Positions 44,498-56,242 of a DNA stretch of 64,000 nt are shown in pieces. The stretch lies in NCBI RefSeq assembly GCF_003790525.1, contig NZ_CP033635.1; one strand, written 5' to 3'. Under the pieces are notes generated by a model. The model saw only the letters and a list, made by a program, of their open reading frames with translations, made no database searches and was not told the origin of the DNA. Positions within the stretch are counted from its first letter, which is position 1; every line of letters begins with the position of its first letter. This DNA is from Escherichia coli (lineage in GTDB: Bacteria > Pseudomonadota > Gammaproteobacteria > Enterobacterales > Enterobacteriaceae). The translations under genes were made by a program, and so were the position numbers.

Positions 44498-46921
44498 ATG
44501 GATCATAGTGTACATAACAAGCTCATCTCATTTATTTGGAACATTGCCGACGACTGTTTACGTGATGTGTACGTTCGCGGTAAGTACCGCGATGTGATTT
44601 TACCTATGGTGGTATTACGACGTTTAGATACGTTACTTGAACCCACCAAAGAAGCCGTGCTTGAAGAGGTCAAGTTCCAAAAAGAAGAGATGCAAGCCAC
44701 GGAGCTTGATGATGAACCATTGAAGGCGGCTAGTGGTTATGTTTTTTACAATACATCTAAATGGACCCTGAAATCCCTGTTCAACACCGCAACGAATAAC
44801 CAACAGATATTACTCGCCAACTTTGAAGAGTACCTGCTTGGCTTTAGCGATAATGTTAAAGAAATCATTGAATGCTTTAACCTCAAGTCGCAAATTCGTC
44901 ACATGGCCTCAAAGCAAGTCCTTCTTGATGTCGTCGAAAAGTTTGTTTCCCCTTACATCAACTTAACTCATGAAACGATCGAAGACCCAGATGGCAACAA
45001 GATGCCAGCCCTTACTAACCTGGGTATGGGGTACGTGTTCGAAGAGTTGATCCGTAAGTTCAACGAGGAGAATAACGAAGAAGCCGGTGAGCACTTTACA
45101 CCTAGGGAAGTGATTGAGCTGATGACACACTTGGTTTTTGACCCAGTGAAAGAGCAGCTACCATTGACCATGACCGTTTACGACCCTGCGTGTGGTAGCG
45201 GTGGTATGCTCACTGAATCTCAAAACTTCATTGAAGAGAAATACCCGAACGACAGCCGAGATATTTACCTTTACGGCAAAGAGATCAATGACGAGACCTA
45301 CGCGATTTGTAAATCGGACATGATGATCAAAGGTAACAACCCTGAGAACATCAAGGTAGGCTCAACCTTGTCTACCGACGAGTTTGCGGCTTCTCGCTTT
45401 GACTTTATGTTGTCTAACCCGCCATACGGTAAGAGTTGGGCGTCTGAACAGAAGCATATTAAAGACGGTAGTGACGTGATTGACCCACGTTTTAAGGTTA
45501 GCCTGAAAGACTATTGGGGAAATCTCGAAGTGGTGGATGCCACGCCACGTTCAAGTGATGGCCAGCTGCTCTTTTTAATGGAAATGGTCAACAAGATGAA
45601 AGATCCGAGCGTAAGCCCATTAGGCAGCCGGATTGCTTCTGTTCATAACGGCTCATCGCTCTTTACCGGTGATGCGGGCGGTGGCGAAAGTAACATTCGT
45701 CGCTTCATCATTGAAAACGACATGCTAGATGCCATCGTTCAGTTACCAAATAACCTGTTCTACAACACCGGCATTACCACTTACATTTGGGTGTTGAACA
45801 ACAATAAACCTGAGGCACGTAAAGGTAAGGTGCAACTGATTGATGCCAGCTTGCTATACCGTAAGTTGCGTAAGAACTTAGGTAACAAAAACTGCGAATT
45901 TGCGCCTGAGCACATCACGGAAATCACCGATACTTACCTCGCGTGTGTGGACGTTGAAAGAGCACTTGATGCAAACAATGATCCTATCGGTATCGCCAGT
46001 AAGGTCTTTAGTAATGACGACTTTGGCTACTACAAAGTCACTATCGAGCGCCCAGATCGCCGCAAAGCCAAGTTTACTCAAGATGCCATAGCCCCACTGC
46101 GTTTTGATAAGCAACTTAGTGAAGTGATGGAGTACGTGTACGCAGAGCACGGCGAACGTGTTTACGAAAAAACTGGCTACGGGTCAGATCAGAAAAAGAG
46201 CTTCTTAAAATCCATCGAGAAAGACATTCTTTCTTGGTGTGAAGATAACGACATCAGTCTCAATGCTAAGGCTAAGGCCAAACTGCTTGATGTGAAACAC
46301 TGGCTGGCGCTAAAAGCATTGCTTGAAACTGCACAAACGCTGATGGCTGACATCGGTAGCATTGAATTTGATGACTTCAATAGCTTTAAAACCCAAGTTG
46401 ATAAATCGCTAAAAGCCCATGCTATTAAGCTTTCAGCACCTGAGAAAAATGCCATTCTTCACGCGGTGAGCTGGTATGACGAAACCGCCAAGAAAGTGGT
46501 TAAAAAGGTAGTTAAATTAACGGGTGATAAATTAAACGACCTGCTGGAGCGCTATGAGTGTGAAGTCGCTGACTTGCCAGATTTTGGTTATTACCCCGTT
46601 CCTTCAGCAGAAGGCGGTAAAAAAGGCGAGTATATCACTTACGAGACCAATTCAGACCTGCGAGATACAGAATCTGTTCCATTAAAGCAAAGCATTTACC
46701 AGTACTTCCTAGATGAAGTGAAGCCTCATGTCGATGAAGCATGGATAAACCTAGATACGGTAAAAATTGGCTATGAAATCAGCTTCAATAAGTATTTCTA
46801 CCGTCATAAACCGCTGCGTAGTTTAGAAGAGGTCGCAACCGACATCATCAACCTAGAACAAAAAGCCGAAGGTTTGATTGCGCAGATTCTTGGTGCGGAA
46901 GTAAAAAAGGTTCAGGGGTAA
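44498..46921 (+). CDS. hsdM: Type I restriction-modification system methyltransferase subunit HsdM (long form, ~807 aa)
   Basis: Track ORF from 44462 (TTG); ATG at 44498 with AGGAAAAG RBS; N6-adenine MTase motifs DPACGSGGML and NPPYG; ~300-aa C-terminal extension. Confidence 0.85.
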   Translation: MDHSVHNKLISFIWNIADDCLRDVYVRGKYRDVILPMVVLRRLDTLLEPTKEAVLEEVKFQKEEMQATELDDEPLKAASGYVFYNTSKWTLKSLFNTATNNQQILLANFEEYLLGFSDNVKEIIECFNLKSQIRHMASKQVLLDVVEKFVSPYINLTHETIEDPDGNKMPALTNLGMGYVFEELIRKFNEENNEEAGEHFTPREVIELMTHLVFDPVKEQLPLTMTVYDPACGSGGMLTESQNFIEEKYPNDSRDIYLYGKEINDETYAICKSDMMIKGNNPENIKVGSTLSTDEFAASRFDFMLSNPPYGKSWASEQKHIKDGSDVIDPRFKVSLKDYWGNLEVVDATPRSSDGQLLFLMEMVNKMKDPSVSPLGSRIASVHNGSSLFTGDAGGGESNIRRFIIENDMLDAIVQLPNNLFYNTGITTYIWVLNNNKPEARKGKVQLIDASLLYRKLRKNLGNKNCEFAPEHITEITDTYLACVDVERALDANNDPIGIASKVFSNDDFGYYKVTIERPDRRKAKFTQDAIAPLRFDKQLSEVMEYVYAEHGERVYEKTGYGSDQKKSFLKSIEKDILSWCEDNDISLNAKAKAKLLDVKHWLALKALLETAQTLMADIGSIEFDDFNSFKTQVDKSLKAHAIKLSAPEKNAILHAVSWYDETAKKVVKKVVKLTGDKLNDLLERYECEVADLPDFGYYPVPSAEGGKKGEYITYETNSDLRDTESVPLKQSIYQYFLDEVKPHVDEAWINLDTVKIGYEISFNKYFYRHKPLRSLEEVATDIINLEQKAEGLIAQILGAEVKKVQG

Positions 46922-46927
46922 GTCGTT

Positions 46928-48238
46928 ATGATGAAGATTTCTGAAATGCCGAAATATGACGATTATGTAGATTCTGGGGTTGAATGGTTGGGACGAGTAC
47001 CTGCTTCTTGGGAATTAACACGATTAGGCACTCGCTTTAATGAGCGTAGATCTAAAGTTTCAGACATTGACTACCCCGCACTCTCCGTAACAAAAAAAGG
47101 CGTTCTACCTCAATTAGATAATGCGGCCAAAACAAAAGATGGCGATAACAGAAAGCTAGTAAAAGAGGGTGACTTTGTTATAAATAGCCGCTCTGATCGG
47201 AAAGGTTCTAGTGGAGTATCTGACAGAGATGGATCAGTATCGCTTATAAATATAGTGCTTAAACCAAAAGGGATTCATCCAAAGTTTTCTGAGCATCTTT
47301 TGAAAAGTCATGCATTTATTGAGGAATACTATCGTGTTGGACGTGGAATTGTCGCAGATTTGTGGACTACTCGATACGATGAAATGCGGACGATTACTAT
47401 ATCTGTTCCTTCACTAGAAGAGCAAACCCGTATCGCCAACTTCCTAGACAAGAAAACCGCTCTAATCGACGAAGCGATTTCGATCAAAGAAAAGCAAATT
47501 AATCTGTTAAAAGAACATAAGCAGATCATCATCCAACAGGCGGTGACCCAAGGGCTTGATCCCAATGTGCCAATGAAAGACTCCGGTGTGGATTGGATTG
47601 GAGATATTCCAGAGCATTGGGAAGTTGTGCCTCTAAAAAGGTTGGCGGTCTTGAGCCCTTCTGTGAAAGTTTCAAATAGAAAGTCCAAAGAATTAGTTAC
47701 TTTCTTAGCGATGGAAAAGGTTTCAACAGATGGATTTATTGATCAAGATACATTAATGCCTATATGTGATGTGAGCCAAGGTTTTACGGTTTTTAACCGG
47801 GGGGATGTGATTGTTGCAAAAATTACACCTTGCTTTGAAAATGGGAAATCTGCTTGGCTTAACAATCTTCAAACTGAGTTTGGATACGGCTCAACCGAGT
47901 TTCACGTTTTAAGATGTGGTCAGAGAATTATAGGAAGTTTTCTCTACTTAATCGTTAGTTCGCCCCTTTTTCTTAATGCCGGTGAGGCTATGATGACTGG
48001 TTCAGCTGGTCAGAAGCGCGTGCCTAGTTCATTTATCCAAAACTTTCCTACCGCAATTCCCGGAGTTGCAGAGCAAGAAAAAATAGTATCAAAGGTAAAA
48101 GAGCTGTTTTCACAGATTGATGTTGTTGTGGCTTCTACGGTAAATCAAATCGAAAAGCTCAAAGAATACAAAACCACCCTGATCAACAGCGCCGTGACAG
48201 GAAAAATAAAAATCACCCCAGAAATGGTTGAGCAATAG
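46928..48238 (+). CDS. hsdS: Type I R-M specificity subunit HsdS (two target-recognition domains)
   Basis: 436-aa ORF 6 bp after hsdM; duplicated architecture with conserved central and C-terminal repeat regions. Confidence 0.8.
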   Translation: MMKISEMPKYDDYVDSGVEWLGRVPASWELTRLGTRFNERRSKVSDIDYPALSVTKKGVLPQLDNAAKTKDGDNRKLVKEGDFVINSRSDRKGSSGVSDRDGSVSLINIVLKPKGIHPKFSEHLLKSHAFIEEYYRVGRGIVADLWTTRYDEMRTITISVPSLEEQTRIANFLDKKTALIDEAISIKEKQINLLKEHKQIIIQQAVTQGLDPNVPMKDSGVDWIGDIPEHWEVVPLKRLAVLSPSVKVSNRKSKELVTFLAMEKVSTDGFIDQDTLMPICDVSQGFTVFNRGDVIVAKITPCFENGKSAWLNNLQTEFGYGSTEFHVLRCGQRIIGSFLYLIVSSPLFLNAGEAMMTGSAGQKRVPSSFIQNFPTAIPGVAEQEKIVSKVKELFSQIDVVVASTVNQIEKLKEYKTTLINSAVTGKIKITPEMVEQ

Positions 48239-48247
48239 GAAGCGAAT

Positions 48248-49411
48248 ATGTTCACGGTAAATTATCAGACCAACAGGATTAGTCCGGTTAAGACGAAGAG
48301 ATTCAGTGAGTTGGGCTTTACTGAGCGCAAAAATCTTCAGGAATGGTTGGCACACGAGCCTTCCGCACTGGGTGAAGAGCTGCTGATTATTCAAAAAGAG
48401 TTCGATGGCTTTGATGACACCCGTGAACGCTTAGATTTACTGGCACTGGATAAAGATGGCAACTTGGTCATTATTGAAAACAAGCTGGACGATAGTGGCC
48501 GCGATGTGGTGTGGCAGGCGCTTAAATATGCCTCCTACTGCGCAAGTTTAACCAAAGCGCAAATCGTTGAAATTTACCAGCAGTACTTAGACCGCTATGA
48601 GCCTGTAACAGGAGAGGTTGACTTGTTTAATACCCCTGCAAGTGCCTCTGCTAGAATATGTGAGTTTTTGGATGCGCCCGATCTCGATGAGTTAAAGCTC
48701 AACCTGGGTAACAGCCAGCGCATTATGTTAGTTGCGGCAAACTTTCGCAAAGAAGTGACCAGCACCGCGCTGTGGTTATTGGGTCAAGGCATTAGCATTG
48801 CCTGCTTCAAAATCACGCCTTATTCACTGGGTGAACAGCTACTGATTAATATTGACCAGATCATTCCAACGCCAGAAGCGAAAGAGTTGATGATCGGCAT
48901 TAATGCCAAGGAAGCGGAAGAAAAAACCACCGAAGTGGTACTAAAAAACCGCCATACCGTGCGTCGCGAGTACTGGGAGCGTGCCTTAGAGGCGTTTCAG
49001 AAAAGCTCTTGCCAACTCTATAACAACATTAGCCCAAGCAAAGATCATTGGTTATCAGCAGGCTCAGGGCTAAGTGGATGTCCGTATAACCTGATATTTC
49101 TGCAAAAAGAGCTTCGAGTAGAGCTTTGGATCAGCCGTGGGGTTACCGAAGAGAATAAATACCTTTTTGATTTGTTGAGTCAGTCCAAACAAGACATTGA
49201 GCATACTTTTGGTGCAGAACTTGAGTGGATGAGGCTGGATGAGAAGAAATCTTGCCGTATCCAGTTTTCGACCAAAGCTGACGGGTTTAACAAAGAGACT
49301 TGGCCCCAAGCGGTTGCGTGGCACTTAGAGCAGATGACAAAGTTAGAAAAAGCCTTAAAAGGACCGCTGCAAAAAGCGGCTGAGGCAATGAAACAGAAGA
49401 ATTTTGATTAA
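48248..49411 (+). CDS. PD-(D/E)xK nuclease-fold protein with DUF4268-like C-terminal region, embedded between hsdS and hsdR
   Basis: 387-aa ORF; RERLDLLALDKDGNLVIIENKLDD ... QALKYASY gives a D / ExK / QxxxY (RecB-type) motif series; 9 bp after hsdS and 14 bp before hsdR. Confidence 0.5.
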   Translation: MFTVNYQTNRISPVKTKRFSELGFTERKNLQEWLAHEPSALGEELLIIQKEFDGFDDTRERLDLLALDKDGNLVIIENKLDDSGRDVVWQALKYASYCASLTKAQIVEIYQQYLDRYEPVTGEVDLFNTPASASARICEFLDAPDLDELKLNLGNSQRIMLVAANFRKEVTSTALWLLGQGISIACFKITPYSLGEQLLINIDQIIPTPEAKELMIGINAKEAEEKTTEVVLKNRHTVRREYWERALEAFQKSSCQLYNNISPSKDHWLSAGSGLSGCPYNLIFLQKELRVELWISRGVTEENKYLFDLLSQSKQDIEHTFGAELEWMRLDEKKSCRIQFSTKADGFNKETWPQAVAWHLEQMTKLEKALKGPLQKAAEAMKQKNFD

Positions 49412-49425
49412 GGGAATTTACAATT

Positions 49426-52400
49426 ATGGTCAGTCAAACCAATGAACAAGCATTAGAGTCGGCCATTGAGAAATGTCTGGCTGGGATCAGTACTGAAGAG
49501 CTTAAAGAGGGACTGAGTCAGCAGTCACTGGGTGCTGGATACTTCATTGGTGCTGCTAGTGACTTTAATATGCAATATGCCATTGATGAACGTTTTTTCT
49601 GGCAATTTCTGCAAAAGACACAAGAAGTAGAGTTGGCCAAACTGCAAAAGAACAACCCCTCAGATTGGCAACGTAAGTTACTCGAACGATTTGACCGACT
49701 GATTAAGAAGCATGGCATTCTTCATTTACTTAAGAAAGGGCTAAGCGTAGACGATGCTCATTTCAATTTGCTCTATCCAGCCCCTTTGGCAAGTAGTAGT
49801 GAGAAGGTAAAGCAAAACTTTGCAGATAACGTGTTTAGTTGTACTCGCCAAGTGCGCTATTCCATGGTAAATCCCCTACAAGAAATCGACATGGTATTGT
49901 TTATCAACGGAATACCCTTGATAACGCTGGAGTTGAAGAACGCATGGACCGGGCAAACAGCACGTTATCACGGCCAAAAGCAGTATCGAGATGATCGGGA
50001 TGCAACTCAGCCATTGCTGACCTTTGGCCGCTGCCTAGTGCATATGGCGGTCGATACCGACGAAGTGTATATGACCACCAAGTTATCAGGTAGCAGTACA
50101 TTCTTCTTGCCGTTCAATAAAGGTCACAATCTTGGACAAGGCAACCCGCCGAATCCATCTGGCCATAAAACGGCATACCTATGGCAAGAAGTATTCACTA
50201 AAGACAGCTTGGCGAATATTATTCAGCATTTTGTGCGTCTGGATGGGTCAAGCAAAGATCCATTACCAAAGCGAACCCTGTTCTTTCCTCGATACCATCA
50301 ATTGGATGTGGTGAGAAAATTAGTAGACCATGCCGCCCAGCACGGTGTCGGTCAGACTTACTTAATTCAACACTCAGCCGGTTCAGGTAAGTCTAACTCG
50401 ATTACCTGGGCAGCTTATCAGCTAATTGAAACCTATCCTGCTTCGTCTGATGTGGCAGGCGGAAAAAGCTTGGAGCAGCCGTTGTTTGACTCTGTGATTG
50501 TGGTCACCGATAGACGCCTATTGGACAAGCAGCTGCGGGATAACATTAAAGAGTTTTCTGAAGTAAAGAACATTATTGCCCCAGCGAATAAGTCTTCTGA
50601 GCTTAAGCAGGCGCTGGAGAATGGCAAAAAGATTATTATAACGACGATTCAGAAATTCCCGTTCATTATTGATGGTATCGCCGATCTTAGTGACAAGCGC
50701 TTTGCAGTGATCATCGATGAAGCACACAGCTCACAGTCTGGTTCGGCGCATGACAATATGAACCGAGCGATGGGCAAGTCTGAAGTCGAAGAGGCAGAAG
50801 ATGCTCAGGATAAAATCCTTCAGGCGATGAGATCGCGTAAGATGCGCGGGAATGCGTCGTACCTGGCATTTACAGCGACACCAAAAAACAGCACTTTGGA
50901 GAAATTTGGTCAACGCCAAGAAGATGGCTCTTACAAGCCGTTTCACTTGTATTCGATGAAACAAGCCATTGAAGAAGGCTTCATCTTGGATGTGCTGGCA
51001 AATTATACGACGTACAAAAGTTATTATGAGATTGAGAAATCAATTGCTGATAACCCTGAGTTTGATACCAAAAAGGCGCAGAAAAAACTCAGAGCTTATG
51101 TAGAACGAAGCCAGCAAACAATTGATATCAAGGCAGAGATTATGCTGGAGCATTTTGTTCCGCATGTCGTGAATACGAAAAAGCTCAAAGGTAAAGGTAA
51201 AGGAATGGTGGTCACTCAAAATATTGAGGCGGCCATTCGATACTACAAAGCGATAAGGCGAATACTTGAGGAGCAAGGAAACCCGTTTAAAGTTGCCATT
51301 GCTTTCTCAGGAACCAAAGAAGTTGATGGTATTGAATATACCGAAGCAGATATTAATGGTTTTGCCGAGTCAGATACCAAAGATATGTTTGATACCGATG
51401 AGTATCGACTTTTAGTGGTTGCTAACAAGTATCTGACTGGGTTTGACCAGCCTAAGCTTTGCGCCATGTATGTAGATAAGAAGCTCGCCAGTGTCTTGTG
51501 TGTTCAGGCGCTATCTAGGCTCAATCGCAGTGCACCTAAGCTAGGGAAGAAAACAGAAGACTTGTTTATCCTGGATTTTTTCAACTCGGTTGAAGATATT
51601 CAATCAGCATTCGATCCTTTCTATACAGCAACGTCATTGTCCCAAGCTACAGATATAAACGTACTGCACGAGTTGAAAGATGAAATGGACGATGTCGGTG
51701 TGTACGAGTGGTATGAAGTTGAAGACTTTGTGACGCGTTATTTCAAGAATGAAGACGCCCAAACACTCAGTCCAATCATTGATATTGCCGCAGCGCGGTT
51801 TGACCATGAACTAGATCTTGAAGCTGAAGCTAAAGTGGACTTTAAGATTAAAGCCAAACAGTTCGTTAAAATCTATGGGCAGATGGCTTCTATCATGCCT
51901 TATGAAATGGTCAGCTGGGAAAAACTGTTTTGGTTCCTGAAGTTTTTAATACCGAAATTGAAAGTGGAAGATCCCGATGCTGATGCTATTGATGAGCTTC
52001 TCGATTCTGTCGATCTGAGTTCATACGGTTTGCAACGTGTGAAGCTTAACCACAGCATTAAACTTAGTGACCAAGAAGCGGAGCTTGATCCTCAAAATCC
52101 GAACCCACGTGGGGTGCATGGCGGTGAAAAAGAAACTGACCCGCTGGATGAAATCATTCGCACATTTAATGAGCGATGGTTCCAGGGCTGGAGTGCCACA
52201 CCTGAAGAGCAAAAGGTTAAGTTCGTGAACATCGCTGAAAGTATCCGCAATCACCCTGACTTCGAATCGAAATACAAAAACAACCCAGATCCCCATAATC
52301 GAGATTTGGCCTTCGAAAAAATGCTCAAGGAAATCATGCTGCAACGCCGTAAAGATGAACTTGAGCTCTACAAGTTGTTCGCAGGAGATTCAGCATTTAA

Positions 52401-52443
52401 AGCCTCGTGGACGCAAAGTATGCAACGAATGGTAGGTAGGTAG
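49426..52443 (+). CDS. hsdR: Type I restriction enzyme endonuclease/helicase subunit HsdR
   Basis: 1005-aa ORF; SF2 helicase motifs (HSAGSGKS Walker A, IIDEAHSS DEAH box) downstream of an N-terminal nuclease region. Confidence 0.85.
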   Translation: MVSQTNEQALESAIEKCLAGISTEELKEGLSQQSLGAGYFIGAASDFNMQYAIDERFFWQFLQKTQEVELAKLQKNNPSDWQRKLLERFDRLIKKHGILHLLKKGLSVDDAHFNLLYPAPLASSSEKVKQNFADNVFSCTRQVRYSMVNPLQEIDMVLFINGIPLITLELKNAWTGQTARYHGQKQYRDDRDATQPLLTFGRCLVHMAVDTDEVYMTTKLSGSSTFFLPFNKGHNLGQGNPPNPSGHKTAYLWQEVFTKDSLANIIQHFVRLDGSSKDPLPKRTLFFPRYHQLDVVRKLVDHAAQHGVGQTYLIQHSAGSGKSNSITWAAYQLIETYPASSDVAGGKSLEQPLFDSVIVVTDRRLLDKQLRDNIKEFSEVKNIIAPANKSSELKQALENGKKIIITTIQKFPFIIDGIADLSDKRFAVIIDEAHSSQSGSAHDNMNRAMGKSEVEEAEDAQDKILQAMRSRKMRGNASYLAFTATPKNSTLEKFGQRQEDGSYKPFHLYSMKQAIEEGFILDVLANYTTYKSYYEIEKSIADNPEFDTKKAQKKLRAYVERSQQTIDIKAEIMLEHFVPHVVNTKKLKGKGKGMVVTQNIEAAIRYYKAIRRILEEQGNPFKVAIAFSGTKEVDGIEYTEADINGFAESDTKDMFDTDEYRLLVVANKYLTGFDQPKLCAMYVDKKLASVLCVQALSRLNRSAPKLGKKTEDLFILDFFNSVEDIQSAFDPFYTATSLSQATDINVLHELKDEMDDVGVYEWYEVEDFVTRYFKNEDAQTLSPIIDIAAARFDHELDLEAEAKVDFKIKAKQFVKIYGQMASIMPYEMVSWEKLFWFLKFLIPKLKVEDPDADAIDELLDSVDLSSYGLQRVKLNHSIKLSDQEAELDPQNPNPRGVHGGEKETDPLDEIIRTFNERWFQGWSATPEEQKVKFVNIAESIRNHPDFESKYKNNPDPHNRDLAFEKMLKEIMLQRRKDELELYKLFAGDSAFKASWTQSMQRMVGR

Positions 52444-53685: not shown

Positions 53686-54271
53686 AGCGTAAACCGACCG
53701 CCGTATGTAGCCATTAGACAAGAATTGGTAACTTAGACGCCCATCTGACACAGACGGACATCTAAGTATGGAATTACAGGACTGGCGAAAAGAACCTCTA
53801 AAAAGTATTCGAATGAATTCAAACTTCGTATGATTGACTGGCATCACAACCCGGTGCTTGTGTGGCCCAGATTGCTCGAGAAAATGGCGTCAATGATAAT
53901 GTTATTTTCAAATGGCTCAGACTTTGGCAAAACGAAGGGCGTATATCGCGGCGTCTTCCGGTAACAACCTCTTCTGACACTGGCGTTGAATTATTACCTG
54001 TGGAGATAACGCCGGATGAGCCGCAAGAACCGGTGGCTGCTCTTACTCCGTCTTTATCCACCCAGACTACTGTCAGTGCCAGCTCCTGCAAGGTGGAGTT
54101 CCGTCACGGTAACATGACGCTGGAAAATCCTTCACCAGATCTGCTCACAGTGTTGCTCCGTGAACTGAGCGGGAGGGGACAATGATCTCACTCCCGTCAG
54201 GTACCCGCATCTGGCTGGGTGCCGGCATTACCGATATGCGTAAATCCTTCAACGGATACGACATATGCTGA
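53686..54271 (+). mobile_element. IS66-family 5' portion: left end, tnpA (orf1) and the first ~30 codons of tnpB
   Basis: Begins gtaagcgtaaaccgaccgcc; ORF 53862..54185 (MAQIARENGVNDNVIFKWLRLWQNEGRISRR, HTH-like); 54182 starts MISLPSGTRIWLGAGITDMRKSFNG (IS66 TnpB N-terminus) then stops. Confidence 0.5.
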
Positions 54272-54997
54272 AGGAGGAGCAGTAATGGATTAAGTGATAA
54301 CAAATGCCCAGAAATAGAGGTTTAAATCCTGCTTAGTTAGTACATAAATACTATTTTGATGAAAATTATTATATGTCACCTCGGATTTTAATCAGGCGCC
54401 CAGATTAAATCAAGTATTGAGCGCCTGATTATGTTTATTCATTAATATCTGTCATTGATTGTCTTATTATCAGTTACCCCCGTCTTAATCAGAGTTTTCA
54501 TTTATTTTTAATGCATAATCAGATGCCGCCTCATCATTATCCTCAGTATTATCATAGCCGAAAACTTCTCCCGGGCACGGGCGTTCACGATAATAGTCAT
54601 CGTTATAGTTTTCATCGTCAGATAATGATATGTCGTATTCTGAATATGATTCACCACAATTATACATAAAATCATCTCCTTTGGGATTGTTACAATAATT
54701 AGTGAGTTTATTCGAAAAAATAATGAGCGCCAGACCAATCCACCCGACTTTTGATTATAATCATGAAGATACCTGTCTCAGTACAAATAGAATCAAACTC
54801 AATACAGCATGATTCACCTTTATATTCTCTCAGGGAAACCAAATACCACTATTCAACTATTAAGAATAAAATTCTGGAGGTGCGATTATCTGAAGATACC
54901 TGCATCCTAAATAATTTCAGACAGATATTATCTCCGTGAATCCCCCGCCACCTTTCCGGTGCGCGGGGTTTTGTCTTTTTTCACCGGGAATACATGT

Positions 54998-55870
54998 ATG
55001 AATCCGTCTGATGCCATTGAGGCAATTGAAAAACCACTGGCCTCCCTGCCTAATTCGCTTTCCCGCCATATCCTCGAACATCTGCGCAAACTCACCAGCC
55101 ACGAACCCGTGATTGGCATTATGGGTAAAAGCGGGGCCGGTAAATCCTCACTCTGTAATGCACTGTTTCAGGGGGAGGTCACCCCGGTCAGTGATGTTCA
55201 CGCCGGCACCCGGGAAGTGCGGCGCTTCCGTCTGAGTGGCCACGGTCACAGCATGATTATCACTGACCTGCCCGGGGTGGGCGAGAGCCGGGACAGGGAT
55301 GCAGAGTATGAAGCCCTGTACCGTGACATTCTGCCTGAACTTGACCTGGTACTGTGGCTGATTAAAGCCGATGACCGTGCCCTGTCTGTGGATGAGTATT
55401 TCTGGCGACACATCCTGCACCGGGGACATCAGCAGGTGCTGTTTGTGGTGACGCAGGCCGACAAAACGGAGCCCTGCCATGAATGGGATATGGCCGGCAT
55501 TCAGCCTTCTCCCGCACAGGCACAGAACATTCGTGAGAAAACAGATGCGGTATTCCGGCTGTTCCGGCCCGTACATCCGGTTGTGGCCGTATCGGCCCGC
55601 ACCGGCTGGGAACTGGATACGCTGGTCAGTGCGCTCATGACAGCACTTCCCGACCATGCCGCCAGTCCCCTGATGACCCGCCTGCAGGACGAGCTGTGCA
55701 CGGAATCTGTCCGGGGGCAGGCCCGTGAACAGTTTACCGGTGCGGTGGACCGGATATTTGACACGGCGGAGAGCGTCTGTGTTGCCTCTGTGGCTCGTAC
55801 GGTTCTGCGTGCCGTCCGTGACACGGTGGTCTCTGTTGCCCGCGCTGTATGGAACTGGATTTTCTTCTGA
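54998..55870 (+). CDS. YeeP/YfjP/YkfA-family P-loop GTPase
   Basis: Track ORF 54959..55870; start placed at MNPSDAIEAIEK; Walker A GKSGAGKSS and DLPGVGE G3-like motif; sits upstream of Ag43 as in CP4-44. Confidence 0.7.
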   Translation: MNPSDAIEAIEKPLASLPNSLSRHILEHLRKLTSHEPVIGIMGKSGAGKSSLCNALFQGEVTPVSDVHAGTREVRRFRLSGHGHSMIITDLPGVGESRDRDAEYEALYRDILPELDLVLWLIKADDRALSVDEYFWRHILHRGHQQVLFVVTQADKTEPCHEWDMAGIQPSPAQAQNIREKTDAVFRLFRPVHPVVAVSARTGWELDTLVSALMTALPDHAASPLMTRLQDELCTESVRGQAREQFTGAVDRIFDTAESVCVASVARTVLRAVRDTVVSVARAVWNWIFF

Positions 55871-56242
55871 ACAGTCTGCCAGGGGAAATGCCTGATTACA
55901 TTGCGTTAACCAACTGAAAACATGACACAAACACCTCATCCCCCTCCTGTTTCTCTTGCGTGACTGCCTTGCTGTTAATAGAACAAAACGATCAATAAGA
56001 CAGGTGTCGATCGTTGCCATCGATCGTTTGTAGTGGTTAATGGTCTGCGAAAAGGCAGCTGAATCTCTTCATCATGCATAACGGAATTGCACACAACGGA
56101 CTGATACTTCTCTGGCGGATGAGAGAGGGAAAGCATTTATGTCCGGGAAAAACCACTTTATCTGACCATGCTGTTTTGTACCTGCCGGTATCCACTTTTG
56201 TGGGTACCGGCTTTTTTATTCACCCTCTGTAAGGAAAAGCTG

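Follow-up and report, generated by a model that had tools for sequence, protein, structure and literature searches.

The DNA analysed here, a 64,000-nucleotide stretch of Escherichia coli contig NZ_CP033635.1 that we refer to as the window, has a mean GC content of 50%, but only 32-37% between positions 54300 and 54900. This AT-rich spacer separates the remnant of an IS66-family element from a YeeP-like GTPase gene. A preliminary description of the sequence had recorded the spacer as AT-rich, placed it between an IS66 fragment and the GTPase gene, and drawn attention to an 11-bp inverted repeat and a very acidic minus-strand ORF within it. Each of these observations was reproduced: the IS66 fragment ends at ~54255 and the GTPase gene starts at 54998, the inverted repeat has the arms described and extends to a 14-bp stem, and the ORF encodes 60 residues with a large acidic excess. 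The features of the locus, with coordinates in the window, are as follows.

53773-54256, plus strand: IS66-family remnant comprising a frameshifted tnpA and the first 75 bp of tnpB; left boundary
54257-54889, no strand: AT-rich segment of 630 bp, ~35% GC, specific to one island type
54389-54431, minus strand: stem-loop with a 14-bp stem (11 bp perfect) and a 15-nt loop, 54 nt 3' of the ORF stop
54485-54667, minus strand: ORF of 60 codons with an ATG start, encoding the acidic orphan protein MYNCGESYSEYDISLSDDENYNDDYYRERPCPGEVFGYDNTEDNDEAASDYALKINENSD
54676-54681, minus strand: Shine-Dalgarno sequence AAGGAG (CTCCTT on the plus strand), 8 nt 5' of the ATG
54754-54781, minus strand: candidate sigma-70 promoter (-35 CTGAGA, 16-nt spacer, -10 TATAAT; 10/12 matches in a consensus scan)
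54890-54997, plus strand: element of ~110 bp found upstream of YeeP-like GTPase genes, common to ~3,600 of 5,426 E. coli genomes
54998-55870, plus strand: YeeP/YkfA/YfjP-like GTPase gene with an MMR_HSR1 domain, divergent from the ORF and its constant right neighbour

Island context of the AT-rich segment

A complete IS66-family element can be matched only as far as 54255, which places both the hairpin and the ORF outside the insertion sequence, and the junction with the IS66 remnant recurs in most related loci. Everything of interest in the spacer, namely the hairpin, the ORF and the region 5' of the ORF, is held by the segment 54257-54889, which is 0-10% diverged among its copies and was found in none of the other YeeP-type islands. 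Because those islands match the window only from ~54890 rightwards, the segment serves as a marker of one island type. A 12-bp perfect direct repeat, TGAAGATACCTG, occurs at 54764-54775 and 54891-54902; its right copy sits exactly where homology to the other YeeP-type islands starts, and may therefore represent recombination microhomology.

The annotated island used for comparison, that of SCEC020022, is 100% identical to the window in this region and illustrates the wider arrangement. Its left part carries a P4-type integrase, raffinose/sucrose-type cargo and a type I restriction-modification system, followed by IS3, IS30 and IS66 debris and then the small ORF, annotated as WP_000282126.1. 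On the strand opposite to the ORF lie genes for the YeeP-like GTPase, Ag43, a DUF932 protein and a KlcA/ArdB-type antirestriction protein, continuing on the same strand with a JAB/RadC protein, a DUF987 protein, YeeU-CbtA and further genes; the end of the island adjoins tRNA-Ile, mug and rpoD. In the window, a type I restriction-modification operon (hsdM, hsdS, a DUF4268 gene and hsdR) occupies ~45500-52443, directly left of the IS debris. An Rfam hit to IS102 RNA, an isrC-type sRNA (60 bits, E = 9e-9), also lies at 55988-56224 on the plus strand, between the GTPase and Ag43 genes.

The cargo to the left of the ORF differs from copy to copy and includes hsdR, an MmeI-like enzyme with a helicase, a ter operon, or ibrAB/perC. 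Such variation among copies of the module identifies the IS-debris junction as a cargo hot-spot. The ORF gene is carried at the boundary between variable cargo (restriction-modification, tellurite resistance and so on) and the conserved backbone of E. coli CP4-like integrative islands, the latter consisting of the series GTPase-Ag43-DUF932-antirestriction-JAB-YeeU/CbtA.

The 60-codon ORF and selection on its reading frame

The ORF is already present in RefSeq as a hypothetical protein, WP_000282126.1. Its product contains 18 Asp+Glu (30% of residues) against 3 Lys+Arg (net charge -15), together with 8 Tyr (13%) and few hydrophobic residues, and its central motif, RERPCPGEVFGYDN, is invariant. 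Natural variants (54600-54620, codons 17-24; proteins P0009 and P0024) include an in-frame expansion of a 15-nt unit encoding DDENY and a 6-nt in-frame deletion that takes out Cys-Pro, which together indicate that the acidic tract varies in length. All natural indels in the main protein clusters are of these two kinds and in frame. The Cys-Pro deletion and a C4Y variant further show that the two cysteines are dispensable, which argues against a metal or disulphide core.

The signals upstream of the ORF are well preserved. AAGGAG is unchanged across the genome-derived loci; the metagenome loci had been picked with a 17-mer, AAATCATCTCCTTTGGG, and their invariance at this site was therefore not counted as evidence. 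In the candidate promoter the -10 box is invariant and the -35 box nearly so among 20 haplotypes, and we infer from its sequence that CTGAGA-16 nt-TATAAT would drive the ORF. The -10 box is held by a palindrome, ATTATAAT (54754-54761), which presents TATAAT on both strands, is invariant in the same haplotypes, and could supply -10 boxes in divergent orientation to the small ORF and to the leader of the GTPase. In the gene anatomy that we propose, transcription would start from the sigma-70-like promoter near 54754-54781, a 5' leader of ~80-90 nt would precede the ORF, and the strong AAGGAG ribosome-binding site would be followed by the ATG and 60 codons; the 14-bp stem-loop 54 nt past the stop codon would then block 3' exonucleases or weakly pause transcription.

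Conservation across related islands, which the preliminary description had named as a check on this ORF, proved extensive, and its refuting case, an ORF broken or not conserved in homologous islands, did not arise. Of 5,426 complete E. coli genomes, 852 (~16%) carry the ORF, usually as one copy, with at least 95% identity in 851 of 853 records. Carriers include the O157:H7, O121, O145 and O104:H4 lineages, and PGAP had called a CDS under all 60 genome hits that were sampled evenly down the ranking. The exact protein is found in >10,000 blocks of a public assembly collection, and Klebsiella and Salmonella records contain the ORF sporadically. By tblastn, plasmids gave only 6 near-identical hits and 50,697 phage records gave none; among 100,044 GTDB species-representative genomes, neither a degenerate codon pattern for PGEVFGYDN nor an intergenic 27-mer was found. 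The entries of the Sakai Ribo-seq supplement do not include the ORF, and a literature search by locus tags, accessions and peptide string returned no paper mentioning it.

Searches with the protein were equally narrow in outcome. A word-index search of 5.8 billion clusters and an exhaustive HMMER search of 1.84 billion representatives both recovered only near-identical copies from E. coli and other Enterobacteriaceae, apart from one low-complexity chance hit. No family in Pfam, PADLOC or NCBIfam matches the product, PHROGs yielded a single chance-level match (E = 0.29) and no relative, and the PDB contained no matching chain at E up to 10. Rfam, at E up to 1, had nothing in the spacer.

For analysis of selection, 41 copies of the region from complete genomes, assemblies and metagenome contigs were reduced to 22 haplotypes that are 90-100% identical over 54380-54900. 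The metagenome scan by 17-mer gave mostly chance matches and located the module in 24 of 120 loci; those 24 were used in the test. The 60-codon frame is intact in 20 of the 22 haplotypes. Of the two exceptions, both from metagenome contigs, one has lost 1 bp (contig coverage 0.7) and the other, on a short contig, contains a garbled 9-nt insertion that stays in frame; both haplotypes were left out of the substitution counts. Frameshifted versions of the ORF in public assemblies form small clusters, rare relative to the >10,000 intact blocks, and some derive from very low-coverage contigs.

Substitution events were counted by Fitch parsimony on a neighbour-joining tree of the 20 haplotypes, a procedure whose counts could be distorted by recombination among island copies. 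The ORF accumulated 0.126 substitutions per site versus 0.24-0.25 across 54668-54889, 0.43 between the hairpin and the stop codon, and 0.49 in the hairpin itself (arms and loop), revealing faster evolution of the flanks (0.24-0.49 versus 0.126, p = 3e-4). Within the ORF, 15 events are synonymous and 8 non-synonymous, and codon position 3 accounts for 11 of 19 variable sites. These values, set against 33 synonymous and 147 non-synonymous sites, afford a dN/dS of ~0.12, an estimate that rests on only 23 substitution events because there is no homologue beyond the near-identical Enterobacteriaceae copies. The same substitutions yield dN/dS values of 0.8-1.8 in four other frames; the codon-complementary antisense frame gives 0.24, since it shares its wobble positions with the ORF frame. 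The synonymous excess holds over transition/transversion ratios of 1-8 (p = 3e-6 to 3e-4). Two overlapping ORFs, of 76 aa on the minus strand and 52 aa on the plus strand, were considered as genes and discarded, with dN/dS of 1.8 and 1.4, respectively.

Overall, purifying selection acts on the encoded protein, and the ORF is a real gene. The preliminary description had suggested that it may equally be a chance frame in AT-rich DNA, and this part of the description did not survive: the frame is conserved in 852 genomes and intact in 20 of 22 haplotypes, and the synonymous excess is frame-specific (dN/dS ~0.12), which together lead us to reject the chance reading. Such a frame might seem conserved through hitch-hiking during recent spread of the island, a scenario that would suit a segment diverged by only 0-10% and a low-complexity protein that has no homologues elsewhere and for which AF2 predicts no fold. 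However, the synonymous excess is specific to the ORF frame, the complementary antisense frame excepted, with the others acting as internal controls, and it persists when transition bias is allowed for. Substitutions also accumulate in the ORF half as fast as in its flanks. The ORF has a strong Shine-Dalgarno site at the correct spacing and lies under a PGAP call in every sampled hit, and we consider a chance origin very improbable. A remnant of a larger gene broken by IS66-associated rearrangement is harder still to credit. The segment does adjoin IS debris, with repeated rearrangement on its left side, but the ORF is equipped with an ATG, a Shine-Dalgarno site and a stop codon of its own and with a downstream hairpin, a longer homologue is absent among the 1.84 billion representative proteins, and selection extends along all 60 codons. 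Left of the gene, rearrangements with IS3, IS5 and other junctions extend as far as the hairpin, or into it, but stop short of the ORF in every case.

We therefore favour, with a probability of roughly 75%, the reading in which the minus strand carries here a small gene that is complete, monocistronic and a lineage-restricted orphan. ORFan genes of bacterial accessory genomes are a class discussed in PMC12315717. The ORF resembles lineage-restricted ORFans in being short and AT-rich, in residing on a mobile island in part of one species, and in having no homologues. Unlike many of them, it combines a signature of purifying selection with good translation signals.

The constant right neighbour of this gene calls for a separate account. 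The ORF is always arranged head-to-head with the GTPase gene, with 330 bp between them. Within 54890-54997 lies a canonical hairpin of the intrinsic-terminator type, CCCCCGCCACCTTTCCGGTGCGCGGGG (54941-54968), followed by TTTTGTCTTTTTTC, with a T-run to ~54980, so that the hairpin and T-run end ~18 nt 5' of the GTPase ATG. This element is kept whatever lies further upstream, which suggests read-through or attenuator control of the GTPase. The invariable pairing across 330 bp, an intergenic region that evolves at about half the synonymous rate, and the palindromic -10 box with TATAAT on both strands are features that one might expect if the peptide were a partner or regulator of the YeeP-like GTPase and shared a divergent control region with it. 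However, ~2,750 genomes have the upstream element of the GTPase without the ORF, indicating that the GTPase does not need it, and we regard a partnership of this kind as quite improbable.

The stem-loop downstream of the ORF

The perfect 11-bp arms of the inverted repeat, taatcaggcgc (54389-54399) and gcgcctgatta (54421-54431), are separated by 21 nt; when one mismatch or wobble is allowed, the arms lengthen to 14 bp (54389-54402 and 54418-54431). The predicted RNA fold has an energy of -20.7 kcal/mol on the plus strand and -22.0 kcal/mol on the minus strand, with z values of -3.8 and -4.1, respectively, relative to dinucleotide shuffles. In the 64-kb window, perfect inverted repeats that are 11 bp or longer, with a spacer of at most 30 nt, occur at 8 distinct loci (17 position matches observed versus ~0.65 by chance), and for the 701-bp spacer alone such a repeat appears in 1% of shuffles.

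Conservation of the stem is uneven. The outer 7 bp of both arms experienced 0 events in 14 sites among the 20 haplotypes (p = 0.002-0.02, the range being set by the assumed neutral rate), and the inner stem and loop changed at approximately the synonymous rate. In minus-strand RNA the 14 pairs are kept, several of them through one-sided changes from G-C to G-U; double compensatory changes in the stem were found in none of the haplotypes. The minus-strand fold is the more stable of the two in most haplotypes. An 81-bp piece containing the hairpin occurs in the same 852 genomes as the ORF, at a median of 1 copy each, and is more diverged than the ORF, with 165 records below 95% identity. As a single-copy piece limited to ORF carriers, it is not a REP- or MITE-type repeat.

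Two other identities for the hairpin were discarded: an IS66 end, given that IS66 similarity ends at 54255, and a dispersed repeat, given the median of 1 copy per genome. An IS or another rearrangement has removed the left arm or cut into it in some strains, leaving the ORF intact. In three loci (L004, L046 and L064) homology breaks at or within the left arm, at the equivalent of 54385-54400, and the ORF is intact; a copy of 54328-54400 lies 1.3-2.2 kb off in these loci, with an IS3 between in L004. The heptamer TAATCAG or its complement is present 4 times in 134 bp (at 54389, 54425, 54486 and 54516), corresponding to the two hairpin arms and two sites within the ORF that encode Ser-Asp-Tyr and Ser-Asp-stop. 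This cluster is probably not a binding-site array: the heptamer is in excess window-wide (24 copies versus 6 expected), and one of the ORF-internal copies varies synonymously.

The stem-loop most likely forms the 3' end of the ORF transcript or stabilises it. Like intrinsic terminators and protective 3' stem-loops, it has a G+C-rich core, here GCGCC, and a conserved base, and it follows soon after a stop codon. It differs from intrinsic terminators in its 15-nt loop, compared with the 3-8 nt typical of that class, and in the ORF-strand sequence AAAAUCC where a U-tract would be expected; owing to the long loop, a consensus terminator scan made no call. With no U-tract on the ORF strand, blocking of 3' exonucleases or weak pausing is more likely than classical intrinsic termination. 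The hairpin is possibly also a two-way transcription barrier facing the IS66 remnant.

A role on the other strand is a lesser but genuine possibility, in which the hairpin would act as a plus-strand intrinsic terminator or insulator against transcription running on from the IS66 remnant or out of an upstream gene since lost. There, a U-rich if interrupted tail, UGUUUAUUCAUU, comes after the stem, as opposed to AAAAUCC on the minus strand; convergent units flank the hairpin, and one variant (L028) pairs on the plus strand only. The tail, however, is an unstable ATTC microsatellite, the long loop left the terminator scan without a call here as well, and both the greater stability of the minus-strand fold in most haplotypes and the G-U changes that keep minus-strand pairing point the other way. 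The plus-strand role is compatible with a simultaneous one on the minus strand. The microsatellite itself, right of the hairpin at ~54437-54445, ranges from 1-2 up to ~5 units (L003 and L032).

Possible roles of the acidic product

AF2 returned a monomer model with a pLDDT of 55.6 and a glycine-serine-linked tandem dimer with a pLDDT of 39.8, neither containing secondary structure, although low confidence is expected of an orphan with so shallow an alignment. From its composition and these models we infer that the product may be a largely disordered polyanion, with the proviso that low AF2 confidence is not proof of disorder.

Charge and size invite comparison with proteins that imitate DNA. 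In DNA mimics, surface charge rather than sequence defines the class, carboxylates are displayed in a DNA-like array on a stable fold, and Ocr-like members bind the basic, nucleic-acid-binding surface of another protein (PMC3439906, PMC3384305). At 60 aa and a net charge of -15 the ORF product falls within the size and charge of such proteins, and the PDB, Pfam, PADLOC, NCBIfam and PHROGs provided no sequence or profile link to a known mimic or antirestriction family. The DNA-mimic reading, the basis of which is charge and size only, is thus neither supported nor excluded by our analysis. The most plausible mechanism, though a tentative and somewhat doubtful one, is that the product would electrostatically occupy the basic nucleic-acid-binding surface of a partner protein, serving as a decoy or competitor; that the target is specifically one of restriction or another defence system is unlikely.

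We consider a folded DNA mimic similarly unlikely, in which the product, like Ocr, ArdA or phi29 p56, would counter restriction or another defence and shield island DNA entering a new host. The composition (60 aa, net -15, 30% Asp+Glu) fits this idea, as does the definition of mimics by surface charge and not sequence (PMC3439906, PMC3384305); the island backbone has a KlcA/ArdB-type antirestriction gene and other establishment-type genes, and the nearby cargo is often restriction-modification. On the other hand, the databases gave no match (PDB at E up to 10, Pfam, PHROGs, PADLOC, NCBIfam), no confident fold was predicted for the monomer or the tandem dimer, the ORF is directed away from the backbone operon that contains the known antirestriction gene, and it is missing from phages and essentially from plasmids.

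Individual comparisons are similarly mixed. The product shares with Ocr (T7 gp0.3) and ArdA its charge density and a mobile-element setting beside restriction-modification cargo, but those proteins are stably folded dimers whose carboxylates trace the DNA backbone, whereas the ORF product has no predicted fold and no sequence similarity to any solved structure. The 56-aa phi29 p56, an inhibitor of UDG, and the 64-aa T7 Gp2, an inhibitor of RNA polymerase, are very small acidic inhibitors of DNA-binding enzymes; both are phage early proteins with defined folds in which negative charge competes with nucleic acid for a basic cleft. The ORF product is of similar length and likewise negatively charged, but it was not found in the 50,697 phage records and has no detectable homology to p56 or Gp2. 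Closer at hand, the KlcA/ArdB-type protein (PF03230) is encoded ~6 kb away on the same CP4-like backbone, which demonstrates an investment of the island in anti-restriction; it nevertheless belongs to another family, is encoded on the other strand in a separate transcription unit, and has no similarity to the ORF.

The most far-reaching form of the decoy proposal is that the ORF founds a new family of disordered polyanionic decoys on the CP4-like islands of pathogenic E. coli, which would neutralise a defence or silencing protein that binds DNA, without themselves folding into a DNA-like shape. We think this improbable. Its candidate targets may be restriction enzymes of type I or of the MmeI type, or H-NS, and the islands concerned may include the tellurite/adherence islands of O157:H7.

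As it stands, the locus holds an ordinary accessory orphan gene with an ordinary 3' hairpin. The gene had already been catalogued, without a name or family, and ~16% of complete E. coli genomes carry it; with selection shown on its protein, it no longer counts as probable annotation noise and becomes a legitimate target for small-protein work. If the anti-defence or anti-silencing decoy proposal were true, the product would be a very small, disordered addition to the repertoire of DNA mimics and would help to explain how CP4-like islands establish in new hosts.
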